53,800 nucleotides of DNA from Clostridia bacterium (GCA_024405515.1 JAKSOR010000004.1:1-53800), one strand, 5' to 3'. Numbered from the stretch's first letter, positions 155 to 16,843 are shown. Numbers and translations: made by a program. Notes: generated by a model from the letters alone, not told the origin.

Positions 155-1660
155 ATGAAGAAAGTTTTACTAGTTACTTTTACTTTGATAATTTTGATTT
201 TGCTTCTCTGCTCCTGCAATTCATCCAGGGCACATATCAACAGCATTTCAGACTTAAACGGCAAAAATGTCACAATCGAAAACGGGTCAATTCAGGGCGA
301 TATAATATCTTCCGAGCCTTCACTTAACGGAGTAGAGGTTGAAACATCCCCTACAATTCAGGATGCAGTTGCAAAGCTGTTACTGAAAAAAACCGATGCT
401 GTTGCTCTTGACTACCAACTGGCTCTGAAAATTGTAGAACAGTACGACGGACTGAAAATTATTGATGATAAACTAAATGATTCCGAATACGGATATGCAT
501 TTAAAATAGGGAGTCCTCTTGTAGATAAGTTTAATTCCGTATTAAGCGAGATGGAATCAAGTGGCAAACTTGAACAAATCAGACAGAAGTGGCTTAATGG
601 TGATACTTCATTTGATAATACTCAGGACTGGGATGCTCCGAACGGAGTATTAAAATGCTCTGTCCAGTCACATTTTGAACCTATATGTTATAAGAGTGAT
701 GACAAAATTATAGGAATGGACCCTGAAATTGTCCTCAATATAGCTGAAAAACTCGGATATAAAATAGAATTTGTTGAAGATGATTTTGAAAATCTTCTGG
801 CATCAGTAGTTTCAGGAAAAACCGATATGGCAGCATCAGCTATCACAATTACCGAAGCACGAAGGAAATACGTTGATTTTACCCAGGGTTATTTTGAAGA
901 GAGCAGTGTTTTTATTGTTATTGACTACAATGCTGATAAAATTTCAAGCGGAGTCGGCGTAAAAATCAAGGATGCATGGAACAGATCCATGATAGAAAAC
1001 AACAGATGGAAGGATATTCTTAAGGGTCTTGGCGTGACACTTCTTATGATTTTCACATCAATTCCTATCGGCTTTGTTCTTATATTCCTTCTTTTCCTGC
1101 TTTACTACTATGCAAACGATAAATTCAGAAGCATAATAAGTGGCATAAATAAATTCTTTATCTTAATGCCTCTTTCAACATGGCTTCTTATATGTTACTA
1201 TCTGATATTCCCTGACCGGTCTGTTTCATCATATTTTATCGGAATATTCGCACTTTCAGTTCAGTTCCTAACTGGATATTTCGGAACAGTTGCCGGAGCA
1301 TTTGAAGCAATTAATCCGGAACAGTTTGAGGCTGTAATCACAATGGGATATTCAAAAACCAAGGCATTATTTAAGATATTCTTACCACAGATGATGCCGG
1401 CAATTTTTGCCGGAATGGAAATAAATGTCATTTTCCAGGTAAGAGATACTTCTATTGTAGGATTTATTGCTATTCAGGATATACAGGCAGTTGCGGACGG
1501 AATCAGTTCAAAAGTTATTGATCCTTTCATTCCACTTGCAATTACTGCCGTTTCATATATTTCACTTGCAGCACTGACAACATTTATTGTCAAACTGATA
1601 GGAAAAGCAATTGCTTTTCATTCAAAAAAATCCAATACAGTGATTAAGGAGGCGGAATAA
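155..1660 (+). CDS. Polar amino-acid ABC transporter, fused substrate-binding (SBP_bac_3-like) and permease, with lipoprotein-type signal
   Basis: Lipobox-like LLCSC; SBP3 motifs (GMDPEI, AITITEARRKYVDFT, YGYAF...GKLEQIRQKW); hydrophobic C-terminus with EAA-like loop EQFEAVITMGYS...IFLPQ. Confidence 0.9.
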   Translation: MKKVLLVTFTLIILILLLCSCNSSRAHINSISDLNGKNVTIENGSIQGDIISSEPSLNGVEVETSPTIQDAVAKLLLKKTDAVALDYQLALKIVEQYDGLKIIDDKLNDSEYGYAFKIGSPLVDKFNSVLSEMESSGKLEQIRQKWLNGDTSFDNTQDWDAPNGVLKCSVQSHFEPICYKSDDKIIGMDPEIVLNIAEKLGYKIEFVEDDFENLLASVVSGKTDMAASAITITEARRKYVDFTQGYFEESSVFIVIDYNADKISSGVGVKIKDAWNRSMIENNRWKDILKGLGVTLLMIFTSIPIGFVLIFLLFLLYYYANDKFRSIISGINKFFILMPLSTWLLICYYLIFPDRSVSSYFIGIFALSVQFLTGYFGTVAGAFEAINPEQFEAVITMGYSKTKALFKIFLPQMMPAIFAGMEINVIFQVRDTSIVGFIAIQDIQAVADGISSKVIDPFIPLAITAVSYISLAALTTFIVKLIGKAIAFHSKKSNTVIKEAE

Positions 1661-2748
1661 TGCTAAGAATTGAAAATCTGTGCAATAAATATAATTCCCG
1701 TGTTGTCTTTAACAACCTTAATCTTACTGTTAACAAAGGTGAAGTAATCGGTATTATAGGCGCATCAGGATCAGGCAAATCTACCCTGTTAAAATCAATA
1801 CTTCTTCTTCGTGAATTTGAAAGCGGACACATATATTTTAAAGATACTGAAATTACAAAAAAATCCATCTGTTCCCCTGCTATCAGCGGTAAAATAGGTC
1901 TTATATTCCAGAATGCCAACAGTCTTTTTTACCATCTTTCTGTTATTAACAATATCACATGTGGTCTTATTGACATTAAGCATATGAAGAAAAAAGATGC
2001 TTATGAAAAAGCAGAAGGACTTTTAAAATTAGTCGGTCTTAATGATAAAGCAAATGATTATCCTGGAACACTTTCAGGAGGACAGCAGCAGAGGTTATCC
2101 ATAGCAAGAGCCTATGCCCTCGACCCTGAATTAATTCTTATGGATGAACCGACATCAGCACTCGATCCTCTTGCCAAAAAAGAAGTTGAAACAGTAATCA
2201 AACTTATGGCAGACAAAGGTGAAACCATTATTATTGTAAGTCATGAACTTGAACTGATAAAAAATGTCTGCTCAAAAGTTGTTTTTCTTAATGACGGTTA
2301 TGTTTATGAAGAAGGCACACCTTCTGAAGTACTGGATAGCCCTAAAAAAGATGCAACCAGGAGATTTGTAAAAGCTTTAAGAGTCCTTGAACTCAGCATT
2401 AACTCTTCAGACTTTGACTTCATCGGCCTCAGCACAACTCTTTCCGAATACGCTTACAGGACGTCGATGCCGCACTCCCATATGCTTAAAATGCATTCTG
2501 TTCTTGAAGAATTGTTCCATGTATTCATTATAGACAGCAAAGAGAACAATAAACTAAAAATACTGCTTGAGTATAATGATAAAGAAGATGTGGTATACGG
2601 CACAGTATTTGCAACAGGAGATGAAATAGATACAGACAATCCATATTTCTATGTATCTTGGAAAATTATTGAGAAACGTACACAGGATCTTGAAATAACA
2701 AGATGCGACACGGACGGATTCACCAACCTTTTAAAATTCAGAATCTGA
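1660..2748 (+). CDS. Amino-acid ABC transporter ATP-binding protein (GlnQ-like) with ~120-aa C-terminal extension
   Basis: Walker A GASGSGKS, LSGGQQQR signature, Walker B ILMDEPTSALDP, H-loop VSHE; TAATG overlap with the upstream gene. Confidence 0.92.
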   Translation: MLRIENLCNKYNSRVVFNNLNLTVNKGEVIGIIGASGSGKSTLLKSILLLREFESGHIYFKDTEITKKSICSPAISGKIGLIFQNANSLFYHLSVINNITCGLIDIKHMKKKDAYEKAEGLLKLVGLNDKANDYPGTLSGGQQQRLSIARAYALDPELILMDEPTSALDPLAKKEVETVIKLMADKGETIIIVSHELELIKNVCSKVVFLNDGYVYEEGTPSEVLDSPKKDATRRFVKALRVLELSINSSDFDFIGLSTTLSEYAYRTSMPHSHMLKMHSVLEELFHVFIIDSKENNKLKILLEYNDKEDVVYGTVFATGDEIDTDNPYFYVSWKIIEKRTQDLEITRCDTDGFTNLLKFRI

Positions 2749-2754
2749 TAATAC

Positions 2755-2780
2755 AAATGCCTGGCAGGTGCCAGGCATTT
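2755..2780. terminator. Bidirectional terminator between convergent genes
   Basis: Perfect inverted repeat AAATGCCTGGCA-GG-TGCCAGGCATTT. Confidence 0.8.
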
Positions 2781-2799
2781 TAGTTATAGAGACTTTGAT

Positions 2800-3483
2800 T
2801 TATGCTTCTATCTCGGGAGCATTTTTATCTTTGATCATATTGTTCAGGAACGTAAATATGGTCGCTGCAGCACTGTATGAAGAGAGCATTAATATCTGAG
2901 AAACAGCAGATGTTACGCAGTAACTGTCTTTATCGTTTGCCTGAGTTATTGCATATACGCAGATAATAAGCATAAATGCAAGTATACCTGTCTCAGTAAG
3001 TCCCTGCATCAGGTTCCTCTTATATGAAGTTACAGCAACGAATATAAGCACAAAGAACGGCATAAAGAAACCTGGTGCGCAAAGAGATGTATGAGCGGTT
3101 CTTAAAGCTGTTAAGTGTGCATCATCAGGTTCGTAGTATGCTGGAATTGAAAGCCCAACTGTAATAATCAGTACTCCGAATCCTGCTATTGCATATAAGA
3201 GTTTTTTAAACCACTTTGCATAACGGCCGCTTTCAAGTATATGATAAAGACCATAAAGGAATAATCCAAAGTTCAGCCCGCCGGCAAAAAGAGCAAGCGG
3301 GAAAAGTCCCTGTGGCCAGGCTATTCTTGAAAGAGACGTTGAAATCGGTCTCTCTCCTCCTGCAAAAGTCACTCCGACATTGATAATAGGGACTATAACA
3401 AAGGATAAAATTGCCAGGATTACATACTGAGTATTCTGGTTCTTTATCTTTACTTCTTTGCTGTAATCGAATATCTGTCTCAT
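2800..3483 (-). CDS. Multi-pass membrane protein of unknown function
   Basis: 227 aa, about 6 hydrophobic segments; GGGGAG RBS upstream. Confidence 0.8.
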   Translation of the reverse strand: MRQIFDYSKEVKIKNQNTQYVILAILSFVIVPIINVGVTFAGGERPISTSLSRIAWPQGLFPLALFAGGLNFGLFLYGLYHILESGRYAKWFKKLLYAIAGFGVLIITVGLSIPAYYEPDDAHLTALRTAHTSLCAPGFFMPFFVLIFVAVTSYKRNLMQGLTETGILAFMLIICVYAITQANDKDSYCVTSAVSQILMLSSYSAAATIFTFLNNMIKDKNAPEIEA

Positions 3484-3540
3484 AAAAACTCCCCTTTTGT
3501 TATTATTATTGTAGACTGACTAGAATTGTCAGCATCAGTT

Positions 3541-6500
3541 TTATTGATAATTCTTGCTTACCTTTATCAACGGAGCCACAGCAGAAAGATTGTCACGTGC
3601 TGAGAATGAATTTACCGATGCTCTATCGTTGCAGATGCAATATGTATTGAATGCTCTATCAGCATAATCAGCAGCACCTGGTGTTTGCGAAACAGCATTG
3701 GCGTCACAATCATTAAAACCTGAAGCATAGGCATAAGCCGAGCCTTTACCAGGAACCCCGAATGAGTTGACGTACGCCTGTAACTGGTCTCTTGTAGGAA
3801 GGGCAATAGTGTCAGGCATACCGGATGACGGCGGTAAAATCCATGAGCTTTCAGAATTAATAAACAACGCATTATACATATCAGCATTAATCCACTTTCT
3901 TATTTCAGAATGATAATAATCAGTCAATAGTAACTGAAGCCCATCATAGTAATAATAAATATAATGCATATCATACATATGAACATCAAGCACGCTGCAC
4001 GACATAAGTGTAAGATCAGTATCTGTTTCTCCTATAATAGCCCACAAAACAGGTTCGAATTTAAACCAGTACACGTTGTGAAGTTCATATCCGGAAGGCA
4101 TATCATGCGTATATCCCAAACTATAGATAGTGGTTTCAGGAACTTTATTTATCAGATAAAGAGCTCTGTATAATTCTCCGTTATATTCAAAATCAGCATG
4201 CCATCTCCATGGTTCCACTCTATCACCGCCATGTGAAGAATTTATTACGTATGCATTACCATGATATGCAGTTCTTGAATTGTATTTTGCTATAAGTCCA
4301 CTATCCGAAGTCTTATATGGACCTGCGACAAGAGAGTCTTCTCCATATGGATATAAGGTCACCTTATTTGCCAGGTCACAGAGACAAATATCTCCGTTTA
4401 CGAGGTCAACATACGGAAGCAATGTATAAGTCGTACCATTATTTGTTATCACAACTTTCGAAATTTTTGCCTTTGCAAAATTAGATGGCATATTATCGTC
4501 GTTATTCATTGCAAAGATATACAACGGGCGGGCATCTCTCCATCCTCCATCTGATAAAATTGAGTTCTCCGGAAAACCTCCTGGATATTCAGTAGAAGCA
4601 GAGAATCTGACTTGTGATGTACCGATTATTGTCTCTAACTGGGTTGATGTACCTGTGTATGAGAAAGCTACATCAATCTGAGTATCTGAATCCCAGAAAA
4701 AGTCAGTAGTATAACAGCATTGACCGGTATTTTCAACATATTCTATTGCAGCAAATCTCTTATTAAAATCTGCAATAAGAAGATTATTAAGATTGTTAAT
4801 TAAAGATGAATCTGTAACACGGGATGTAGGATAAGAGCCATACATAACATATTTGCCATCCTTATCCTGTTCTCCTTTCTCATTAACCCTAACCCAAGTC
4901 TTGAATCCGCATCTAGAGCAAAGTTCCCCTTCAAAATTATGACCTAAAGGTTCACCCACTGAGAATGTTTCAGTTGTACTGTGTTCTTTTCCGCACTTAC
5001 ATGACAGATAGTATTTTTTCGGTTCAGTACACGTTGCCGAGGAGGCTACATAACTCTCATTTATGTATTCGCCTAAATTATGTACCGGGTCTCCGTATGT
5101 AAACGTATCATCATGATCCGAGCAAACTGTTTCACAGTTAGCACAGGACTTGTAATAAATTGCAGGGCTTGTGCAGTTTGCAGGAGATTTCAGTGCTGAA
5201 TTCTTAACAATTTCTTTAGTAGGATCATGCGGTGCGTAATCTCCGTATGAGAATGTTTCAGTATCACTGCATGAACCACAGGTACATGATACATAGTATC
5301 TTGCAAGCTGTGTACATGTAGCAACTGACTTAAGATATCTGTCTTCAGCTATATGAAGTCCGTTTTCTCTTGAATAATCGCAGATATGGTTCTTATCAAG
5401 GACTACGGATACCATAGGTATAAGTCCGTATACAGGCTCATGGAGATTCGATATATTCTTCGCCCCGTCCTTAGTCCAGAGACGCATATCACCATCAGGT
5501 TCGACATAATAGTAAGATGCACCATCAGAATTTGTCTTAAGGCCTTTAATCCTTGAATATGTTGAATATTCTGTTAAACCTTCATCAAATACATAAGCCT
5601 CCTTGACCGGAGTGATTTCGGTTACCATTTCTTTCTGGAGGTTATTAAGTGCCATTCCCATGAAAATGCCATTCAGGTAATCCTTCAGGAATGAATTTTC
5701 ATAATTCAGGTTATTATTTGAGATAAACGGCACAGTCATAGAATCAATGGAACTGACGCAAACAAGATTTGCCCTTCCGTCTTTAAGGTCATGTATCTTC
5801 CAAAGAAGCGGTTCATACTTAAACCAGTACACTTTATTCAGTGCGAATCCGTTGACAGTTCCTCCTGTGTAATCTACACCATCAGGCAGAGAACTGTAAT
5901 AAATCGCCCTGTATCTGACTGTTTCGTTAGGGAGTTTCATTGCATAGTCATAATATGCACCCTCCCCGGTATTATAGTCACCGCTGAATTTCAGGTTCTC
6001 AATAAGTGTCCAGCCGTTGAGATTGTCCTTTGTCGGAAGATGCGATACTGCATCAAGTGAATTAAGTTTTGTTTCAACAGAAAGATTACGTACAAGTTCA
6101 AGCGGATATTCGCCGAACTGTATGTAGTCACCTTTCTTATTAGGTGTACCATCCGCATCACACCTTATATAAGACCATTCGCCGCACTTTAAGCATTTCC
6201 CGTTTTCATCAGGATTATGTCCTAAAGGATCCCCTACCGTGAATGTATATTTCTCATCACAACTTACTGCACCGCATTCACATGTCTTGTAGTAAGTAAG
6301 GGCATGAGTACAGTCCTGTTCACAGTAAAGATACCTTTCATCCTGTATCTGTTTATTAAATGTGCAGATGTGAATTACCGCTTCAGGATGAGGTGCAAAA
6401 CTGACATAATCAGGATATTCACGGCCTAATGTTATAGATGAAGTGCCACCGGCTGCAGCATCTGTATTAATTAATCTATCTGTGTTTTCCGGATAATAAG

Positions 6501-9500
6501 TCCTTGTCGGGATGTAAGATTTGTCGGCGCTCATCAAATAAGCATATGTGTTAGAAGTCAAAGCGGTAGTCTTACATGTTTTTAATATATTCCACAGTTC
6601 ATCCTTATCCGGAAGATACAGATAGTCTTTTGTTATAACCGTACCACGTCCAAGAGTTTCCGATCTTAAATTTGTCTGAAGAACATTTTCTAATTCAAGG
6701 GCACTAAATGCTTCATTATAAAAAACTTCGTTAAGCCATTCCCTTACATAAGAGAAATCCCAGTCTGTAGGATAATACTCAGTCTTCCCGTCAGGAGTTG
6801 TAGATTTTGCATTGTCAATGGAATACTGGAGTATGTCAGTATGGTCAATGGCCCAAATAGTATAAGTACTTTCGCTTGACCTTACAATTTTCCACAAGAT
6901 AGGCTCAAACTTAAAGACAACAACCTCTTTTGTCGGCATATCACTCATAGTGGGAGTGGCGTACAAAAATTTCTGTCTGTTATGAAGGAAGTATACTGCA
7001 CGGTATTTCTCCCCTTCATATTCAAAATCTTTATACCAGGCAAATTCTTCAGGATGGATACCACGTTCCGCAGCAGAATATACATAGAAATCGTATGGTG
7101 TCCAGCCTTTTCTGTCATATGTAAGTGCTGCCACCTCAACCGGAACAGCTCCAGCTATATTTTTAAGATTTGTCAAAAGTGTTCCGTCAGTTATCCTTGT
7201 CCTTGGATAATTGCCGAAAAGTACATAGTCTCCGTTTTCATTCGGAGTTCTGTCACTATTACATCTCATAGCTGTTGTCTGTCCGCAGTCCCTACACTTT
7301 CCGTTTTCAATTCTGTGTCCGGACTTAAGACCATACTCAAATGTATCTGATTCGTATCTGCTGCTCTTACCGCATGTACAGGACTTATAGTAGATAGCAG
7401 GACTTGTACAGGTGGCAACAGACTTTAATGCCTTACTGTTTACTACTTCCTGATCAAATTTGCAGACGTGTGTTGTTACAAGTGTTACCCAGCACTCAGG
7501 TACTATTCCCATTGAAGAATACTCAATCGGGTTTGATACAATTCCGTAGAAGTTTGCGGAACTTAAGACTTTCTTACCGTCTGTTGCAAAATTGTCCTCA
7601 CTGCCGGTATTCTCAGGGTTATACAGATACCACTGGTTATCATACTTGTCCACTCCGTCGAATCCCTGCTGACAGAGTGCATAATCACTTGCAACCTTAA
7701 AGTTGTTATAGTCGCTGCCGATTCCGTACTGTTCATACTGTGCTTTGCTTAAAAGTGTTACCTTATCGGCAAAAGCTTTTTTACCTGATACTGAATCCAC
7801 ACTGATTTTTTCGGATTTTAATCTTTCTCTCTGAAGCTGTGAGAATGCGGTAGTATAGAAATCATTAAGGAGCCAGTTTCTGAGATATGAGTACTCATAG
7901 TCATTAGCCATTGTTCCTTCAGGGATTTCATCTCCGACATTGTAGTAATTTCCTCCGTTTAAAGTAAACTGGTCAAAGAACGGCTGGAAATCAATAATGG
8001 ATGTACAGAGCACATGTGCTTCTCCGTTCATTTCTGACAGAATCTGCCATATTAGTCTTTCATACTTGAACCAGTATACAGTACCTGTCTTATATCCGTT
8101 CAGTTCCTGATATGATTCAGCATTAGACGGTGATAATGCCCTGTATTCATCAAAATACACTGCTCTGTATTTTTCATATTTATCATAATCTGCTTCGGTT
8201 GCTGCAGGTATTGTCAGTGTGTAGTCAAAGTACCACATATGTACTTCGCCGCTGACCACTGAAGTTCCGCTGACGAAATTGTTATATGAATATGGTGTCC
8301 AGTTATAGTAGTTATCTGCAGTCGGAAGAAGCGGGATATTTTTGTTAAGTGTACTGAGAAGAACGTTATCAGTTACTCTTGTCTGAGGATATTCACCAAA
8401 GAGAATATATCCTTCATCAGTTTCTGTTTCTCCGCCGAACTGATTACATCTGAGTGCAGACCAGAGGCCGCATCTTGAACATACGCCCTTCTTATCAAGA
8501 ACGTGTCCTAACGGGTCCTGTCTGTCTCTTACGATTTCATAATCGCAGTTAAGGCACTTATAAGTTGTATATCCGCCCTCTGAACATGTCGGGGCTTTTA
8601 CTGTTGCGGAAAGTGTATGACCAAGCGGCAGAGTCGGTTTAGCCTGTTCCATATGGCCGCAGTCCTTACATGTTCTGATTGTGTAACCGCCGGTTAAGCA
8701 TGTCGGGTCAATAACAACGTCATCGAAGTCATGATTTGCAGAATCAATTTCACCATATTCGGCTCCGCATCTCACACATTTTGCGAGTTTTGCACATGTC
8801 GGTGTACCGCCGGAGTGTCCGAGCGGTTCATATGATGCTGTTCTAGCGTTTGTTCCGTTGAAATAATATGTATGCTGATATCCGCTCTCTAAACATGTTG
8901 CAGGCTGCTCATCAACCTTATATGCACAGTCTGAAAGTGAATCGTTGTTTGGTTCAATTAAAATATTGTCAAGTCTTGCGTCATATTTTGCAGACTTAAG
9001 CATCGGGCATCTTGCAAATGCCCACTCCTCTACCAAGAGTGCAACGTTACCGAGTTCAACAGACTCAAGAACAGAACAGTCATAGAATGCCTGCTCACCG
9101 ATGTACTCAAGTCCGCCGGTTACTGTCATGTAGGAAAGTGAATAACAGTGGTTGAATGCAAGCTTATCAATCTCTATTACGTTTTCAGGAATTTCAATTC
9201 TTGTTAAGCCTCTGCAGTATTCGAATGTGCTTTCCTCAATCTTTGTGTAATTGCTGTTTTCCGGCAATGCAACAAGTCTTAAGTTCGATGCATAGCAGAA
9301 TGCATTCTTACCGATTGATTCAACGGTTGACGGAATAGTAAGTGTCGAGATTCCTCCTTCTTTGAATGCTCCCTCACCGATTGATTTAAGTCCGTCAGGA
9401 AGTTCCACTGTTGAAAGAACGGATGTTCCCTCAAATGCACTGGCTCCTATTGTTTCAACTGTTGCAGGAATCGAAATTCTCTGGAGAGCAGAACAGTATG

Positions 9501-10575
9501 CGAACATTTCTCTAGGAATATCAGTTAAAAGTAACGGGAGTGTTACAGAACGTAAGGACTCACATCTCTTGAATATTCCTGAACCCATCGTAACTATTGT
9601 CGACGGAATTACAACTTTTTCAATATAAACATTACCCCTGAAGGCACCTGTTGCTATATCAGTAACAGGAAGGTCTTTATAAGTTGCAGGGATTATTACC
9701 TCACTTTCAGAGCCTGAGTATGCTACAAGAGAATATTCCTCTTTTCCGTCTATCTTTTCGTATGTGAAAAGTTCAATCGGTTTAGGAATTACTGTTACAT
9801 AGCACTTTGCAAAAATACCGTTTGAAGCCTTGCTTCTAACAGTAACTATAATAGAACCTTTTGCTTTTGCTTCAAGAAGTCCGTTTTTATCTACGGATAA
9901 GAGTTCTCCTCTGTCTGTTTCCCATGTGACTTCTTTGTCAAAAGTATCATGAGGGAATACTTCAGCACTGAGCTGATATGTGTCTCCTATATACATCGTA
10001 AGCTCTGTGTCACTGAGTTCGATGTTGCTTGCAAATATGTTCTTTACCTTATCAAACTTGGCTGTATAAGTTACATCCTCTGTACATTTCTTTATTTCCG
10101 GCTCCCAACCGACGAAGACATAGGAGTATGTGTCGTCTCCTTCTCTTGTGGGAAGTTCACCCTTAAATGACGGAACTGTATCAATGACAACATCCTTGTC
10201 AGTTCTCAGGAGTGTTCCGTCGTAGTTGACCCATGTGATGATGAATGTATTGATATCACGTTTGCTCGGGTCTATTTTTTCAATAACACCGGTTTCGGAA
10301 TAACCACAGGTTTCACAGGTATGTTCTCTGAGACCTTCTTCCTCAACTGTTGCAGGTACGAGGATTTCCCATTCCCCGTAGTTATGCTCTTCGTAATTTT
10401 TTACTTCATCACAGTAAATACATGTCTGCCAGTGATATGTATCGTTGAAGGCATACACTTTTCTGTAACTGTGAGTATGAATAGATGCGTCCTCATTTTC
10501 GCCACAGGCAACCAGGCATGTGAATAATGCCATGATGACACATATTGCCAGTGCGATTCTAACGAATTTTTTCAT
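3541..10575 (-). CDS. Giant modular surface lipoprotein: Cys/His repeats, InlB B-repeat-like, Big_2, BspA-type LRR_5, four DUF6273-like modules
   Basis: Lipobox LVAC (Cys24); LRRs of type LxSVxLPxxLxxIGxxAF; repeated PTC...G...CxxCG...PLGH; four copies of Y[IV]x[FY]GxYP...FK[YF]Ex[LI]xW...[YF]xxSx[LVI][RK]x[WY][LI]. GGAGA RBS. Confidence 0.85.
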   Translation of the reverse strand: MKKFVRIALAICVIMALFTCLVACGENEDASIHTHSYRKVYAFNDTYHWQTCIYCDEVKNYEEHNYGEWEILVPATVEEEGLREHTCETCGYSETGVIEKIDPSKRDINTFIITWVNYDGTLLRTDKDVVIDTVPSFKGELPTREGDDTYSYVFVGWEPEIKKCTEDVTYTAKFDKVKNIFASNIELSDTELTMYIGDTYQLSAEVFPHDTFDKEVTWETDRGELLSVDKNGLLEAKAKGSIIVTVRSKASNGIFAKCYVTVIPKPIELFTYEKIDGKEEYSLVAYSGSESEVIIPATYKDLPVTDIATGAFRGNVYIEKVVIPSTIVTMGSGIFKRCESLRSVTLPLLLTDIPREMFAYCSALQRISIPATVETIGASAFEGTSVLSTVELPDGLKSIGEGAFKEGGISTLTIPSTVESIGKNAFCYASNLRLVALPENSNYTKIEESTFEYCRGLTRIEIPENVIEIDKLAFNHCYSLSYMTVTGGLEYIGEQAFYDCSVLESVELGNVALLVEEWAFARCPMLKSAKYDARLDNILIEPNNDSLSDCAYKVDEQPATCLESGYQHTYYFNGTNARTASYEPLGHSGGTPTCAKLAKCVRCGAEYGEIDSANHDFDDVVIDPTCLTGGYTIRTCKDCGHMEQAKPTLPLGHTLSATVKAPTCSEGGYTTYKCLNCDYEIVRDRQDPLGHVLDKKGVCSRCGLWSALRCNQFGGETETDEGYILFGEYPQTRVTDNVLLSTLNKNIPLLPTADNYYNWTPYSYNNFVSGTSVVSGEVHMWYFDYTLTIPAATEADYDKYEKYRAVYFDEYRALSPSNAESYQELNGYKTGTVYWFKYERLIWQILSEMNGEAHVLCTSIIDFQPFFDQFTLNGGNYYNVGDEIPEGTMANDYEYSYLRNWLLNDFYTTAFSQLQRERLKSEKISVDSVSGKKAFADKVTLLSKAQYEQYGIGSDYNNFKVASDYALCQQGFDGVDKYDNQWYLYNPENTGSEDNFATDGKKVLSSANFYGIVSNPIEYSSMGIVPECWVTLVTTHVCKFDQEVVNSKALKSVATCTSPAIYYKSCTCGKSSRYESDTFEYGLKSGHRIENGKCRDCGQTTAMRCNSDRTPNENGDYVLFGNYPRTRITDGTLLTNLKNIAGAVPVEVAALTYDRKGWTPYDFYVYSAAERGIHPEEFAWYKDFEYEGEKYRAVYFLHNRQKFLYATPTMSDMPTKEVVVFKFEPILWKIVRSSESTYTIWAIDHTDILQYSIDNAKSTTPDGKTEYYPTDWDFSYVREWLNEVFYNEAFSALELENVLQTNLRSETLGRGTVITKDYLYLPDKDELWNILKTCKTTALTSNTYAYLMSADKSYIPTRTYYPENTDRLINTDAAAGGTSSITLGREYPDYVSFAPHPEAVIHICTFNKQIQDERYLYCEQDCTHALTYYKTCECGAVSCDEKYTFTVGDPLGHNPDENGKCLKCGEWSYIRCDADGTPNKKGDYIQFGEYPLELVRNLSVETKLNSLDAVSHLPTKDNLNGWTLIENLKFSGDYNTGEGAYYDYAMKLPNETVRYRAIYYSSLPDGVDYTGGTVNGFALNKVYWFKYEPLLWKIHDLKDGRANLVCVSSIDSMTVPFISNNNLNYENSFLKDYLNGIFMGMALNNLQKEMVTEITPVKEAYVFDEGLTEYSTYSRIKGLKTNSDGASYYYVEPDGDMRLWTKDGAKNISNLHEPVYGLIPMVSVVLDKNHICDYSRENGLHIAEDRYLKSVATCTQLARYYVSCTCGSCSDTETFSYGDYAPHDPTKEIVKNSALKSPANCTSPAIYYKSCANCETVCSDHDDTFTYGDPVHNLGEYINESYVASSATCTEPKKYYLSCKCGKEHSTTETFSVGEPLGHNFEGELCSRCGFKTWVRVNEKGEQDKDGKYVMYGSYPTSRVTDSSLINNLNNLLIADFNKRFAAIEYVENTGQCCYTTDFFWDSDTQIDVAFSYTGTSTQLETIIGTSQVRFSASTEYPGGFPENSILSDGGWRDARPLYIFAMNNDDNMPSNFAKAKISKVVITNNGTTYTLLPYVDLVNGDICLCDLANKVTLYPYGEDSLVAGPYKTSDSGLIAKYNSRTAYHGNAYVINSSHGGDRVEPWRWHADFEYNGELYRALYLINKVPETTIYSLGYTHDMPSGYELHNVYWFKFEPVLWAIIGETDTDLTLMSCSVLDVHMYDMHYIYYYYDGLQLLLTDYYHSEIRKWINADMYNALFINSESSWILPPSSGMPDTIALPTRDQLQAYVNSFGVPGKGSAYAYASGFNDCDANAVSQTPGAADYADRAFNTYCICNDRASVNSFSARDNLSAVAPLIKVSKNYQ

Positions 10576-10641: not shown

Positions 10642-10670
10642 ATTTTAGGTTATAAAACGGCAAATGTCAA
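10642..10670 (-). promoter_or_regulatory. sigma-A promoter for the giant lipoprotein
   Basis: Minus strand TTGACA-17 bp-TAAAAT. Confidence 0.75.
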
Positions 10671-10724: not shown

Positions 10725-10755
10725 CAAAAAAGAAAAGACCTCGGTCAAGGTCTTT
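10725..10755 (-). terminator. Terminator after DUF975 gene
   Basis: AAAGACCT-6 nt-AGGTCTTT stem followed on the minus strand by a T-rich tract. Confidence 0.75.
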
Positions 10756-10780
10756 CCGGTATTCTAAACGTGTGAATTGG

Positions 10781-11714: not shown

Positions 11715-13364
11715 ATGCCAAACGAAAACGAAGTCATAAACAATGAAAATCCTAATAAACTCAGTGTCATAGAAGAAGTTATGAACGACGGTGATGAAAA
11801 CATTTATGCTAATGAGGATTTAAGAAAGGAAGTTGCTCTGGCTTTAGCTGAACAGATGAACAATACAGCGGCAGAACAGAAGATTCCTGATTATGACCCT
11901 ATTACTGAGGAAGACATCGATAAATTAATTGCAGACGAGGAAAAGTTAAGTCTCCATCTCGAGTGCAAAAAACTTCAGGAAAGATCAGTAAAGCAGCATG
12001 AGATTCTGCATCAGTACACAAGCGCAAACGCAAAACTTCCGAAAGATCAGCAGTTCAAAATTCAAAACACAAACACGTTTCTCTACGCATTTATTGATCC
12101 AGCAGACACAAAAGAAGCAAAAGCCAAAAATGATGCATTATTTGAAAAAATCCGTAAACAGGGAGATTTTTTCATAGCTGACCAGGCTATGGAAATTGCA
12201 AGAAACTTTGAAACAAAGAACTACTTCCCTAAAGATAATAGGGATGCCATGAAAATATATGCCGAACATTCTGATGAACTGAACATTCTTTTTGCACTAA
12301 ACAGAAACATTTCAAATAATATCACACCTGGAATGAGTGAAGAATGGAAAAAGGTTTATTCAGATAATATAAAACTATATGAAGCAACGGCTAATGCCAA
12401 ACTGATTGTTGAAGCAATCGGCTCTACTACTTACCTGTTATTACCTGAAGAAAAGTGCAATACGTTAGTAAGTCTGATGGCCGCAAGAGACGTACAGAAA
12501 AACGTAATTGACGTTTATTCAAAAAAAGGTGTTGATTTCGGTCCTGATCCGACCAACAAAATATCAAACCTGAATGACTTGAAAAGAGTCAGAACCGAAT
12601 GTGAGAAAGCAAACAAAGTAATGGATCAGCTTCCTGAAAAAATGTCGTTTGTCACCGCAGAAGTTCTGGATGAAAAAACGAACGAATACAAGCACATTAA
12701 GAACTCTGATGCCATTACCGCACTTTCAGAAGGCAAACAGGTTAAATTCACTGAACTTGATAAAAATGTTGTCGACATGTACAAAGGTGCAGAGGCAAAA
12801 ACCATAAATGACAAAATCACGGCAAAGAATAAACTTATCGAAGTAGATAAATATAAGGAATATCTTCAGAGATTACAGGATACACACACAATATTCCATA
12901 ATACATTCCTCTCCACTGATTCAGATGCATTCAAAAACATGGAAAATGCGCTGACAGATTATATAGAAGCAGCTGAGTCTGCTATTGATAAAGCCAAAAA
13001 GATCAGTAAAAACAATCCTGCAAACAATATCTCAGCAGAAGATTTCAAACTGCTTGCTGACAAAATGGAAAAAATTGAAAGAACTTCCGAGGCATACTAT
13101 CAAAAGAACAAATCCGTCAGCAGAAACCCGCGAAAAGAAGAACGTTTCCAGATTGCTAAAGAAATATTTGAAAACACCGATGGTCAGCAGCTCAAATTAG
13201 ATATAATGGGTGAAACTCAGTCAAAGATTATCCACAGACGCCATATGTCAATAATGGAAGCCGCGGATATTAAACCTATTAACGGACAGGTAAGCAAAGC
13301 TGTTGTGGCACCGTCAAAAGATATTGGCAAAAATGGACCGAGCATGGGACCTGAAAAGAAATAA
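11715..13364 (+). CDS. Unknown-function protein, paralogue 1 of tandem array
   Basis: 549-aa charged, probably helical ORF with no signal peptide or TM segment; shares motifs with the next two ORFs. Confidence 0.85.
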   Translation: MPNENEVINNENPNKLSVIEEVMNDGDENIYANEDLRKEVALALAEQMNNTAAEQKIPDYDPITEEDIDKLIADEEKLSLHLECKKLQERSVKQHEILHQYTSANAKLPKDQQFKIQNTNTFLYAFIDPADTKEAKAKNDALFEKIRKQGDFFIADQAMEIARNFETKNYFPKDNRDAMKIYAEHSDELNILFALNRNISNNITPGMSEEWKKVYSDNIKLYEATANAKLIVEAIGSTTYLLLPEEKCNTLVSLMAARDVQKNVIDVYSKKGVDFGPDPTNKISNLNDLKRVRTECEKANKVMDQLPEKMSFVTAEVLDEKTNEYKHIKNSDAITALSEGKQVKFTELDKNVVDMYKGAEAKTINDKITAKNKLIEVDKYKEYLQRLQDTHTIFHNTFLSTDSDAFKNMENALTDYIEAAESAIDKAKKISKNNPANNISAEDFKLLADKMEKIERTSEAYYQKNKSVSRNPRKEERFQIAKEIFENTDGQQLKLDIMGETQSKIIHRRHMSIMEAADIKPINGQVSKAVVAPSKDIGKNGPSMGPEKK

Positions 13365-13432: not shown

Positions 13433-13497
13433 GTCATAGTCTTGTCTTTATCTTTTTGATAAAATGTAAGCATAATAGAAAAAGAGAGGTAAAAATA
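13429..13497 (+). promoter_or_regulatory. Conserved upstream element, copy 2 (extended -10 promoter plus RBS)
   Basis: TTTTGTCATAGTCTTGTCTTTATC...TGATAAAAT...GAGGT; 55 of 58 nt identical to copy 3. Confidence 0.8.
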
Positions 13498-15096
13498 ATG
13501 CCACCTGAAAAATATGATAATCCGGATATTTTAACAAATCCAGAATTAAGAAATGAACTTGCACATGTCTTTGCCGAAAATTTAAACGGCACTATGTCCC
13601 AGTTGCCTTTTGAACAGACAGGATTTACGCCAATTACCGAACAGGAAATCAATGATATGCTTGCCGATCAGAGCATGATTGATACTCACCTTCAGGCAAA
13701 AGAACTTACGGAAAGGACAAAAAAGCAGCATGAAATCCTTGATAAGTATGATGATATAAACATGCTGAAACTTCCGGAAGACAAATGGTATTACACGAAT
13801 GTAAAGACAATTATGTTTACTTTCCTGGACCCATCTGGCACACCGGAAGCAAAGGAGAAAAATGACAAGCTTTTTGAAAGAATTAAAAACGAAGGCGATG
13901 GGTTCCTGGTAAAAAAAGCATTGGATATATGTACAAATTTTGACTATAACCTGCTTTTTGAAACAGACCCTGTAAAGAAAATGCAGATATATAAAGAGCA
14001 TCAGGATGAACTCAATGTAATGTTTGCAATTAACCGAAACATAGGTCCGCTCATCAATGACCTTCCTGAAGAAGCCCAGAATGTCTATAAGAACAATCTG
14101 AAAATAATCGAATCAGCTTCTAACATAAATCAGTTCGTAGAATCAGCAGCATCGCCTGTTTACCTGCTTATTCCTCAGAATAAACTTAAATCAGCAATTG
14201 CTGCAGCAACCGTAGTGCCTGTTATAAATCCGACTATCCAGGAATATGCTAAAGCCGGCGTAAATCTCGGAAATTACTCAAACAAACTGATGCTGTTGTC
14301 TAACGTTGCCAACTCCGATGAAGAATGCAAAAAGATTAAAGAAGCAATGAAATCCCTTCCGGACAAAGATATTCTTAAAGTCAAAGCAAAAGTTAAAGCC
14401 GCAGATTCAGATGAATATAAGGAACTCACTAATGCTGAAGCACTTATTGCGATAACAGAAGGCAAAGATGTTCAGTTCACTGTAGATGAAACCGGAGCCA
14501 AGAAAATAAGAGAGGCCGAGTTTAAGCCTTTGACACCGGAGAAAAAATTTGCTCTGGCAAAATTAGATGTAAAAGAAGAGACATACCATGTCGCAGAAAC
14601 AGCAAGATTCAGCGCATTACTTGAAAAACTTAAAGGAACACACACAATTGTTTCCTGGACACGTTTTTCAACAGATTCGGAGGCGTTTGAAAATCTTGAG
14701 GAATCACTTGAGACATTTGTGGACCTAACATCAAAAATCAAGTCAAGGACTTTAGATGATATGGATAATGTAAAAGTGTATCTTGATGCATACAAAGATC
14801 TTGAAGAAAAAGCGGGAAAGTATTATCACGAAAAACTCAGTCAGAGCAAGAACAGCAGAAGACAGCAGAGATTTGATATCGCAAAGGAAATATTTGAAGC
14901 TATGGACTCAAGGAGTATGGAAGGCCTTCTGAATCCTACAAAAGCTGAACTTGCACACAAACAGCATATCGAGGTTATGGAAGCAAGCGATGTGACAAAC
15001 AACAAAGCAAAAGACACGAGCAAAGCTGTAGAAAAATTAAACAAGGGATTTGATATACCTGCCCCTGCCCAACAGCCGAATGCCCCGAAAAAATAA
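13498..15096 (+). CDS. Unknown-function protein, paralogue 2 of tandem array
   Basis: 532 aa from ATG 13498 (GAGGT RBS; MPP start as in paralogue 3); shared motifs DPSGTPEAK, HQDELN, THTI...STDS. Confidence 0.85.
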   Translation: MPPEKYDNPDILTNPELRNELAHVFAENLNGTMSQLPFEQTGFTPITEQEINDMLADQSMIDTHLQAKELTERTKKQHEILDKYDDINMLKLPEDKWYYTNVKTIMFTFLDPSGTPEAKEKNDKLFERIKNEGDGFLVKKALDICTNFDYNLLFETDPVKKMQIYKEHQDELNVMFAINRNIGPLINDLPEEAQNVYKNNLKIIESASNINQFVESAASPVYLLIPQNKLKSAIAAATVVPVINPTIQEYAKAGVNLGNYSNKLMLLSNVANSDEECKKIKEAMKSLPDKDILKVKAKVKAADSDEYKELTNAEALIAITEGKDVQFTVDETGAKKIREAEFKPLTPEKKFALAKLDVKEETYHVAETARFSALLEKLKGTHTIVSWTRFSTDSEAFENLEESLETFVDLTSKIKSRTLDDMDNVKVYLDAYKDLEEKAGKYYHEKLSQSKNSRRQQRFDIAKEIFEAMDSRSMEGLLNPTKAELAHKQHIEVMEASDVTNNKAKDTSKAVEKLNKGFDIPAPAQQPNAPKK

Positions 15097-15220: not shown

Positions 15221-16843
15221 ATGCCACCAACAGGAAATAATATCAACATTTACGAAGATGTCGAAACAAGAAAAAAAATTGCATTAGAAATGGCAAATGC
15301 TCTTAACGAAGATGTCGGCAAATTCCCTTCAGAAATAACGGGCTATACTAATATCACCGAAAAAGACATTGATGATATGATTAACGACAAAGAGCATATG
15401 AACAGACATCTGCGTGCAAAAGCACTTGTTGACAGATCCAACAAGCAGACGGAAATTTTGGGTGAATGGAAAAAAGAAAACGCAGCTAAGCCACTGCAGG
15501 ACAGAGTATTTTATCCGAATGTTAGCACAATAATGTACTCGTTCATTGACCCATCTGGCACTCCGGAAGCTAAAAAGAAAAATGATGAACTTTTTGAAAG
15601 AGTAAAGAACGAAGGGGATACTTTTTTACTGAAAAAAGCATTTGAGGTTATCAGCAATTTTGATTATCAACAGTTGTTTGAGCCTGATGAAAACAAAAAA
15701 TTTGACATATATGAAAAGCACCAGGATGAACTGAATATAATGTTCGCAATTCACAGAAGCCTGGCTAATAATGGTATGCTTGAAAAATTACCGAAATCTA
15801 CTTTAGAAGTATATGAAAACAACAAAAAAATAATAGAATCCGCATCAAATATTAAATCGACAGTAGAAGGTATGGGTTCAACTATGTTCCTTTTGATACC
15901 GGAAAACAAAATGACAAAACTGACATCAGTCTCTATGGGTGGAAAAGCGATTCATGATACTTTGAAGCCTTATGTCGAAAACGGATTTAATCCAGGGAAA
16001 GATCCAATTAATGATGTCAATAATATAGTAACCCCTTGCTCACTAGAAGAAGAAAACAAAAAAATAGCGGATGCTTTTAAAACTGTCAAGCCAAAAAATG
16101 TTCTTAATATGACTGCAAAAATTTACGATTCTGAAAAAAAGCAATATGTAAATGTTACTAACTATGAAGGACTTCTGGCACATGCAGAGGGTAAACAAGT
16201 AATTTTTACCGAAGATAAGAATGGGAAGGATATTTTTAAAGAGACAGAATTCCCAGACCTACATAAAGAAGATAGGCTATCTATAATTAAATCAACATTA
16301 ATATCTACAGAATACAACAAAAAAGAAGGCGAACGTCTTAAAGGTCTACTCAAAAAGTTACAAGACACACATACTATATTTTCAAATACACGTTTTTCAA
16401 CAGATTCGGAAGAATTTGAGAACTTAGAAGATTCATTAGAACGTTTTATTCATGTAACCGAACAGATTAATAAGGATACATTTAAAGGTCCTGACGGAAA
16501 AGACAACATGAAAGTATATCTGGATGCATACAAAAATTTAGAAGATAGCGCCGGGAAATATTATAATGCTAAAATAAATCAATCAAAAAATGACAGAAGA
16601 CAGAAAAGATTTGATATAGCTGAAGAAATTTTCAAATCAATGGACAGCAGGCAAATAGATGAAGCTGTAAATGGCCCGTCAAAAGCTTTAATTGCACATA
16701 GGCAGCACATATCTGTCATGGAAGCAAGTGATATAACTAACAGTGGCAAATCAAAAGATGTAAGCAAAGCAGTAAATCAACTTGCCAAAGGTCTTGATTA
16801 TAAAGAACCACAGAAAGGTCAAAAATTAAACGTCTCTAAATAA
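15221..16843 (+). CDS. Unknown-function protein, paralogue 3 of tandem array
   Basis: 540 aa, collinear similarity with paralogues 1 and 2. Confidence 0.85.
   Translation: MPPTGNNINIYEDVETRKKIALEMANALNEDVGKFPSEITGYTNITEKDIDDMINDKEHMNRHLRAKALVDRSNKQTEILGEWKKENAAKPLQDRVFYPNVSTIMYSFIDPSGTPEAKKKNDELFERVKNEGDTFLLKKAFEVISNFDYQQLFEPDENKKFDIYEKHQDELNIMFAIHRSLANNGMLEKLPKSTLEVYENNKKIIESASNIKSTVEGMGSTMFLLIPENKMTKLTSVSMGGKAIHDTLKPYVENGFNPGKDPINDVNNIVTPCSLEEENKKIADAFKTVKPKNVLNMTAKIYDSEKKQYVNVTNYEGLLAHAEGKQVIFTEDKNGKDIFKETEFPDLHKEDRLSIIKSTLISTEYNKKEGERLKGLLKKLQDTHTIFSNTRFSTDSEEFENLEDSLERFIHVTEQINKDTFKGPDGKDNMKVYLDAYKNLEDSAGKYYNAKINQSKNDRRQKRFDIAEEIFKSMDSRQIDEAVNGPSKALIAHRQHISVMEASDITNSGKSKDVSKAVNQLAKGLDYKEPQKGQKLNVSK

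Follow-up and report, generated by a model that had tools for sequence, protein, structure and literature searches.

A predicted Clostridia surface lipoprotein with four divergent DUF6273-subfamily heads, possibly retired DGR targets

In the passages of the literature that deal with it, DUF6273 is described either among the DGR targets of phages or as a function-less N-terminal domain of IgA peptidase. The DGR targets of gut phages, namely tentaclins, the Mtd-like proteins of nd4/nd12, and those of Faecalibacterium prophages and Toutatisvirus, carry this Pfam domain with a predicted C-type lectin fold, and in the sections describing them the DGR variable region maps to the C-terminus of the domain (PMC10743442, PMC11792537, bioRxiv 10.1101/2024.10.15.618418). 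In the IgA peptidase of Thomasclavelia ramosa (IgAse/ThomasA, 9QA6), residues 31-322 are DUF6273 (PMC12402451); the domain has a C-type-lectin-like core that lacks the long sugar-binding loop, is dispensable for catalysis and IgA cleavage (PMC12237041), and is described as having no known function (PMC12415215). The same peptidase also contains His/Cys spacer rods (PMC12237041, PMC12402451, PMC12415215). Outside DUF6273, Treponema TvpA (PDB 2Y3C) and other cellular DGR variable proteins likewise are surface proteins with a C-type lectin fold and can be remote targets, which are common (PMC5758913), and the general view of cellular DGR targets is that they are membrane-anchored binders (PMC8144416). 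A precedent for tandem heads in another family is the DGR target with three tandem FGE-sulfatase domains that Wu et al. 2018 describe (PMC5758913). Finally, the Legionella protein Lcl presents a stalked C-type-lectin-like head that binds host glycosaminoglycans without calcium/sugar motifs (PMC11162425). DUF6273, its fold, its targeting by DGRs and tandem heads in a DGR target of another family are thus already known.

The gene described here lies in a window of 53,800 nucleotides, the whole stretch of DNA analysed, from a Clostridia bacterium (GCA_024405515.1, JAKSOR010000004.1:1-53800). It occupies 3541..10575 on the minus strand, as do all features given below, and the window translation yields a single ORF of 2344 aa without internal stop. 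In contrast to the phage DUF6273 targets, whose domain it shares, it encodes a predicted cellular lipoprotein with four copies of the domain on Cys/His linkers, each copy bearing an extra N-terminal part of ~120 aa, and neither a template nor a reverse transcriptase was found in its assembly, which is 87% complete. The heads diverge most where the phage targets carry their variable region; unlike tentaclins, they follow one Ig domain and an LRR on the C-terminal side, in a housekeeping-gene context. Whereas the IgA peptidase combines one DUF6273 copy with an M64 protease and a sortase anchor, the present protein has four copies, no protease and a putative lipid anchor, at 18-24% identity. TvpA-type proteins belong to the FGE-sulfatase family and are active targets, whereas the heads here belong to another domain family and fail the target tests described below. 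The C-terminal domain of Lcl (DUF1566, PDB 8Q4E) is half the size, trimeric and mounted on a collagen stalk, at 13% identity.

The source assembly (G000) comprises 1.24 Mb, and G+C is near 40% for both gene and genome; the neighbours of the ORF are housekeeping genes, which indicates a chromosomal context. The gene's DNA was not found in the 51 congener genomes searched, and a search of long proteins returned no full-length orthologue, giving mostly Cys/His-linker matches that span ~9% of the query, together with a single two-headed protein. Upstream, a terminator-like hairpin (10732..10757, a pattern match) follows a DUF975 gene, which suggests that the lipoprotein gene may have its own transcript. 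The best-scoring sigma-70-like promoter of the region, TTGACA-17-TAAAAT at 10642..10670, matches the consensus at 11 out of 12 positions, in a region where 30 such sites were found against 29.3 in shuffles.

From the N-terminus, the protein runs through a lipobox, His/Cys repeats, a spacer, Big_2, BspA LRR and a Cys/His stalk to four heads joined by Cys/His linkers. A putative signal peptide II (10504..10575), recognised by its pattern, ends in the lipobox LVAC (residues 21-24, with Cys24) behind a hydrophobic stretch. It is followed by the His/Cys repeats (10276..10500; 4 Cys and 5 His in 75 aa), by a B-repeat-like spacer (residues 108-180; 10036..10254), by the Big_2 Ig-like domain (9823..10026; PF02368, E 6e-10) and by the BspA-type leucine-rich repeats (8962..9783; PF13306, LRR_5, E about 6e-50 to 2e-52, 177 bits with a cut-off of 27.7). 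The sequence-only reading of this DNA, which had seen a lipoprotein with a lipobox, Big_2 and BspA LRR, is borne out by the lipobox pattern and the two Pfam matches; of its finer labels, the His/Cys repeats stand by count, while the B-repeat-like stretch is a resemblance by eye that drew zero Pfam matches at E 0.5. BspA LRR proteins have a role in host binding and adhesion. The protein shares with them LRR_5 and an Ig-like domain on a surface protein; here, however, the LRR is a minor part, ~270 of 2344 aa, and the lectin-fold heads form the bulk.

The Cys/His stalk (8452..8940) holds 13 Cys and 6 His in 163 aa, and similar stretches separate the heads: linker 1-2 (7270..7470; 6 Cys and 2 His), linker 2-3 (6169..6372; 8 Cys and 3 His) and a triple linker 3-4 (4894..5388; 14 Cys and 7 His in 165 aa). 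These counts, taken on their own, are compatible with His2Cys2 sites bridging small beta-sheets. By analogy, the stalk and linkers are likely to be zinc-bridged rods, as proposed for ZBD/CTD2 of the IgA peptidase, although linker 1-2 is mostly of low confidence in the model of heads 1 and 2.

Head 1 (residues 709-1035; 7471..8451) is a full-length match to the DUF6273 subfamily, covering columns 6-311 of a family profile at 195 bits. Head 2 spans residues 1103-1401 (6373..7269); head 3, the shortest, spans residues 1470-1729 (5389..6168) and is short of ~50 aa in its C-terminal third; head 4 (residues 1895-2344; 3544..4893) is split by an insert of ~160 aa, which alone accounts for its length of 450 aa. 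Each head otherwise comprises ~300 aa, consisting of the DUF6273 core and ~120 aa beyond the Pfam model. That the four are homologous, as had been claimed, is supported by BLASTP, which aligns all six pairs (best segment per pair E 7e-9 to 2e-22, 23-37% identity), and by a profile built from 98 relatives, which finds heads 1 to 4 at E 2e-61, 1e-42, 7e-30 and 4e-34. The start motif Y[IV]x[FY]GxYP has exactly four matches, which lie at window positions 8409, 7227, 6126 and 4851, and Sx[LVI][RK]x[WY][LI] also occurs four times, both in agreement with the earlier claims; FK[YF]Ex[LI]xW, said to be in every head, is present in only three out of the four, because head 4 has FKFEPVLW.

The heads have diverged strongly, and more so toward the C-terminus, where the earlier reading had placed the divergence: mean pairwise identity over five successive zones is 28%, 19%, 11%, 8% and 22%, so that the divergence extends across the whole head and not the variable region alone. 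The DGR variable-region position falls within this divergent C-terminal third, at 7510-7617 in head 1, 6403-6498 in head 2, 5428-5499 in head 3 and 3583-3681 in head 4. On the family profile, heads 2, 3 and 4 score 127, 86 and 82 bits, whereas only two out of 283 comparison heads score 134 bits or less and none 92 or less, and HMMER aligns the C-terminal part to the family in one out of the four heads here versus 326 out of the 338 heads of the top 150 proteins. Heads 2-4 are thus among the most degenerate members of the subfamily seen. A FastTree tree (155 rows, columns 6-192, head-4 insert excluded) groups heads 2-4 apart from head 1 with support 0.84; however, the terminal branches of the four heads are 1.2-2.0 long versus a median of 0.39, and because all four are long, we draw no conclusion on the origin of the heads from the tree.

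PF19789, the Pfam model of DUF6273, matches the protein at E 3e-13. Its gathering score of 23.5 bits is exceeded by heads 1 and 2 (29.9 and 24.8 bits) but not by head 3 (13.4 bits) or head 4 (no match). By profile, however, heads 3 and 4 are homologous to relatives that score 73-87 bits with Pfam; hhalign aligns heads 2-4 to the family at 99.3-99.9% (99.5% over 242 columns for head 3, 99.3% for head 4), and head 3 matches DUF6273 in the Atlas at 0.96, with weak recognition. The heads had been called DUF6273-like from the start, and that assignment is correct; the link to DGRs and the commonness of multi-head proteins were no part of it. Head 1 matches 3256 clusters (50% identity) among 1.84 billion representatives. 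At least two heads are present in 129 out of the best 150 of these, and at least four in 13, figures that are not frequencies because the ranking favours multi-head proteins, but which show that four heads per protein are not unique in the subfamily. A genome scan gave 263 related stretches, of which 76 loci were kept, whose titles mostly name uncultured Clostridia, Christensenellales, Eubacteriales or Anaeroplasmataceae. Within the genus, 18 out of 51 other genomes have head homologues, which are single-head; most of those listed are lipoproteins in which His/Cys repeats accompany a single head at the C-terminus. With the patterns used, heads of the extended subfamily were not found in viral contigs. 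Loose forms of the W-x-R-S and G-V-x-P motifs are present in 85 and 84 out of 98 relatives, respectively, and the invariant columns of the family comprise Gly, Pro, Leu, Trp, Tyr, Phe, Ile and a single Arg, and neither Cys nor His is among them. DUF6273 in this form is a large cellular subfamily of surface proteins of gut Clostridia and other gut Bacillota, often multi-head.

The heads are predicted to have a C-type lectin fold. This prediction draws on models for heads 1, 2 and 4, which were built on family alignments and hence lean towards the family fold, and on the sequence profile for head 3. The model of heads 1 and 2 (72 alignment rows) has a mean pLDDT of 76, with both cores mostly at 75-95 and low variable-region loops; in that of head 4 (99 rows), most of the head lies at 70-97. 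The full core, including the last strand, is kept in the models of heads 2 and 4, at pLDDT 77-95. With Foldseek against the PDB, the model of heads 1 and 2 had 9QA6 as its sole match at E<=0.001 (E 4e-4), head 4 had none at that threshold, and by sequence the PDB gave no match below E 0.6. In the fold comparison, head 2 superimposes on residues 32-282 of 9QA6 with Z 14.0 (rmsd 3.3, 177 aligned), the next row having Z 2.6, and head 4, compared with 48,161 chains, matches 9QA6 at Z 11.0, followed by Lcl (7.9), TvpA (7.0), Bd2740 (6.2) and Mtd (4.9). The IgA peptidase's N-terminal domain is thus the best structural match of both heads. Further down the list for head 4, many animal C-type lectin domains follow one another, the C-type lectin fold making up most of the best 50 rows, and a viral library returned mainly DUF6273 proteins. 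Head 1 shows the same order of elements in its model, although the range aligned to 9QA6 was that of head 2. Since the matched domain of 9QA6 has no known function, the match gives a fold and not a function. The models of heads 2 and 4 indicate a shared fold, with which the alignment of head 3 to the family is compatible, and no match to a characterised enzyme family was found. EPN/QPD and WND are the calcium/sugar motifs of animal-type C-type lectins. In contrast to these calcium-dependent lectins, the heads contain none of them, the single EPN of the protein, at residue 541, being outside the heads.

The ~160-aa insert in head 4 (4291..4773), which the sequence-only reading did not point out, is possibly a phage-type ConA/LamG-like domain. 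This lead comes from the Atlas, where the insert falls near unnamed phage clusters (0.94-0.96), the nearest named domain being Laminin_G_3 (0.89); recognition is weak (1971, under 2300), and the pLDDT of the insert is mostly <50. Sequence searches, including PHROGs, returned no significant relative of it.

Direct evidence of DGR targeting comes from relatives. A reverse transcriptase was found within the 10 kb flank of three out of the 76 relative loci (L089, L125 and L157), each with an Avd-like gene (E 1e-7 to 7e-15, short of the equivalog cut-off). When template and head end are compared, 24 out of 25 mismatches in L089, 20 out of 20 in L125 and 20 out of 20 in L157, which also has a 3-base gap, fall at template adenines, which shows that in relatives DGRs target the extended subfamily itself. 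Set against 11 heads from its own assembly, the L125 template has 0, 1, 6, 7, 26, 28, 31, 31, 32, 37 and 46 mismatches among 84 non-adenine positions, a series that we read as running from current to lapsed targets; the heads of four-headed L094 differ from it at 7, 31, 26 and 6 of these positions. Across the family, codons ending in C/T make up 0.76 of variable regions versus 0.57 elsewhere (64 out of 98 heads parsed with strict motifs), and 0.86-0.93 in the three confirmed targets. A value of at least 0.75 is reached by 38 out of the 64 variable regions and by none of the rest-of-head sequences, and targeting is therefore widespread in the subfamily, multi-head proteins included. Moreover, in normal four-headed relatives, identity is 20-26% in the variable region versus 43-83% in other zones. 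Congeners have cellular DGRs with remote targets, and a search of five genomes yielded no template for the congener head L060.

On template, flanking motifs and codon endings, by contrast, the present gene fails the tests for an active target. In G000, 87% complete, no reverse transcriptase, Avd or template exceeded threshold, nor were any adenine-tolerant template matches, AAY-rich tracts or DNA repeats of the gene found; the best non-self template match reached 49-54% at non-adenine positions. WLRS and G[VI][VR]PA are absent from the whole protein, head 1 keeping a partial GIVP and the flanking motifs of the four heads being otherwise lost or altered. Codons ending in C/T make up 0.58, 0.62, 0.58 and 0.67 of the variable-region positions of heads 1-4, versus a background of 0.53-0.58. 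One stretch may be a residual hint of a DGR history, the only one in this gene: out of 2312 windows of 33 residues, eight overlapping ones are free of K/E/Q/M/W and all fall on the variable-region position of head 4, a pattern noticed post hoc, to which the unremarkable C/T codon endings at the same place lend no support. That the lineage's own heads were once DGR targets is something we infer from the family.

Part of the window is contained in 14 runs of seven studies; three of these runs cover half or more of it, one possibly being the source, and no RNA run is listed among them that would show expression. Strains were compared in the contigs of four other runs from three studies. X2 and X3, from two studies, cover the gene with its frame intact, at about 1-2% difference and with zero indels within it, and in X4 small indels occur where the depth is under 3 and may be errors. 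Among the variants listed (40 of 229 and 40 of 49), 64 codons are changed, with 38 replacement and 20 silent changes in the heads versus 0 and 6 in the linkers (Fisher p 0.003). The replacement/silent ratio per site, taken without a genome-wide control, is about 0.5 in the listed changes and not above 1, which indicates relaxed or mixed selection. Five residue changes cluster at residues 2150-2155, in a loop of the N-terminal part of head 4 outside the variable region. At the variable-region positions of heads 2-4, the listed differences comprise eight changed codons, five replacement and three silent; in head 4, they affect two alanine codons, with the identical two replacements in three runs and silent third-position changes alongside. 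These listed differences are not hypermutation.

Taken together, we consider it probable that the gene encodes a lipid-anchored multivalent adhesin built from retired DGR-type heads that are now frozen and drifting. The sequence-only reading had proposed a multivalent adhesin or receptor presenting four different specificities. A fold that serves as a ligand-display scaffold, together with divergence in the part where DGRs vary specificity, fits a multivalent adhesin; four distinct specificities are plausible, and some heads may have decayed. If decay had gone further, only head 1, the LRR or the head-4 insert would bind, and the other heads would be spacers or an antigenic shield. This seems rather unlikely to us, even though it would fit the scores of heads 2-4, below those of nearly all comparison heads, the loss of ~50 aa from head 3, the lost or altered W-x-R-S and G-V-x-P motifs, the frequent replacements in heads among the listed strain differences, and also the long terminal branches and the failure of HMMER over the C-terminal part of three out of the four heads. 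Against it, the models of heads 2 and 4 keep the full core, the frame is intact across strains with a per-site ratio below 1, and the clustering of strain changes at residues 2150-2155 is more suggestive of selection acting on a surface loop than of uniform decay.

The role of DGRs can be questioned from two sides. The heads might have diverged by ordinary duplication and selection, with the DGR link no closer than family ancestry; the gene and its assembly carry no DGR trace, the divergence spans the whole head, and a DGR lies within 10 kb at only 3 out of 76 relative loci. We regard this as improbable given the strong codon signature in 38 out of the 64 parsed family heads, multi-head proteins included, and the cellular DGRs with remote targets of congeners. 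Conversely, it would be tempting to place the reverse transcriptase and template in the missing 13% of the genome, with the terminal head 4 as their target, as remote targets are common (PMC5758913) and the variable-region position of head 4 is both free of K/E/Q/M/W and different between strains at two alanine codons. However, the conserved flanks that would match a template are gone, C/T codon endings are at background, and three runs share the same two replacements with silent changes, as opposed to ~20 adenine-specific changes in true targets (heads 2-4, listed differences); an active target is thus quite improbable. There is, lastly, only a very slight chance that the heads are enzymes of C-type lectin fold, comparable to formylglycine-generating enzyme, EgtB or CarF. 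Such enzymes do occur low in the fold list of head 4 (PvdO 5.8, CarF 5.5, EgtB 4.8), but they score no better than ordinary lectins, no Cys or His is invariant, HExxH is absent from the protein, and the PDB search by sequence mentioned above gave no match below E 0.6.

If the gene encodes an adhesin of retired heads, Cys24 would be lipidated and the N-terminus would anchor the protein, with Big_2, the LRR and the Cys/His repeats keeping the heads at a distance from the cell. In every head, the loops that connect the last helix with the last strand would be offered to a macromolecular ligand, for which a host glycoprotein, mucus or another microbe are candidates, and which would be bound without the calcium site of animal lectins, as in Lcl. 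Its history might have begun with a DGR that diversified a single head; heads would then have been duplicated or collected into one gene, DGR targeting would have lapsed, and ordinary mutation would have driven the heads apart, with a further domain acquired by head 4. More tentatively, we speculate that DGRs may act as temporary tuners in gut Clostridia, in that a head is hypermutated, copied into a multi-head protein and released, giving a fixed antibody-like repertoire. The present gene would then be an end state, with four working specificities and, in head 4, a fifth, phage-derived lectin domain, gripping a host surface or a partner microbe; we think it doubtful that all of this holds.

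No description of cellular multi-head DUF6273 lipoproteins was found in the main texts of the literature searched, and members of the subfamily may already stand in the target tables that accompany the DGR surveys (PMC8144416, PMC5758913). The gene is an eroded example, and L089, L094 and L125 show the system more clearly. Within this subfamily, variable regions in the active, recently lapsed and fully eroded state can be compared side by side, which makes it testable what becomes of a target after its DGR has left, and whether duplication serves cells to bank hypermutated binders. The subfamily also provides candidate adhesins for uncultured gut bacteria with small genomes.

In three related genomes, the template of a diversity-generating retroelement (DGR) could be matched to a target, and almost all mismatches lie at template adenines. 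The template of G024 (locus L071 on G024:C11, with L017 on G024:C6) matches a large surface protein on another contig, and 12 of 13 mismatches lie at adenine; that of G031 (L033/L018, G031:C5) matches a neighbouring large surface protein with 11 of 12 mismatches at adenine, and in a prophage-like DGR of G017 (L069, G017:C17) all 13 mismatches between the template and its own target are at adenine. These targets belong to a DUF6273-like subfamily different from that of the lipoprotein heads. No reverse transcriptase was found in a further related genome, G034, despite its 30 DUF6273-like matches. In L125, which carries a complete DGR, the template has a Cys codon at the site of the family's conserved Arg (L125:10790-10915 and 11891-12016). 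The adjacent target shares this change and the remote targets in L094, the locus of a four-headed protein in the same assembly, retain Arg; a non-adenine change appears to have been copied from template to target.

Head 4 of the lipoprotein varies between strains. At window positions 4112-4128, eight base differences in runs X2 and X3 cause five residue changes (residues 2150-2155), and seven of the eight recur in run X5. This stretch is an allelic hot spot, located in a head-4 loop outside the classical variable region. Erosion of the C-terminal third of heads is recurrent: in the multi-head proteins P0038, P0052, P0059 and P0071, too, some heads fail to match the family alignment over this third.

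Another lipoprotein of ~910 aa (G000:C20, about 1500-4270, forward strand) has at its N-terminus the Cys/His linker unit that also occurs in the 2344-aa lipoprotein, but the body behind it differs and is without annotation. Upstream of the lipoprotein gene lie three tandem paralogues of 540-549 aa (window 11715-13364, 13456-15096 and 15221-16843, forward strand), which share 35-48% identity and a conserved C-terminal block, in DNA with strong A skew and lower GC. They gave no match in Pfam or PHROGs and none above cut-off in NCBIfam, and have no obvious signal peptide; the assembly holds no fourth copy. Directly 3' of the lipoprotein gene, a 227-aa multi-pass membrane protein (2800-3483, reverse strand) had no match in Pfam, PHROGs or NCBIfam.

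Sequence searches found no significant relative of the insert in head 4 (window 4291-4773, reverse strand). Language-model features place it close to unnamed phage proteins and, more weakly, to ConA/LamG domains. If this placement is true, the insert would be a lectin domain inside a lectin-fold head.
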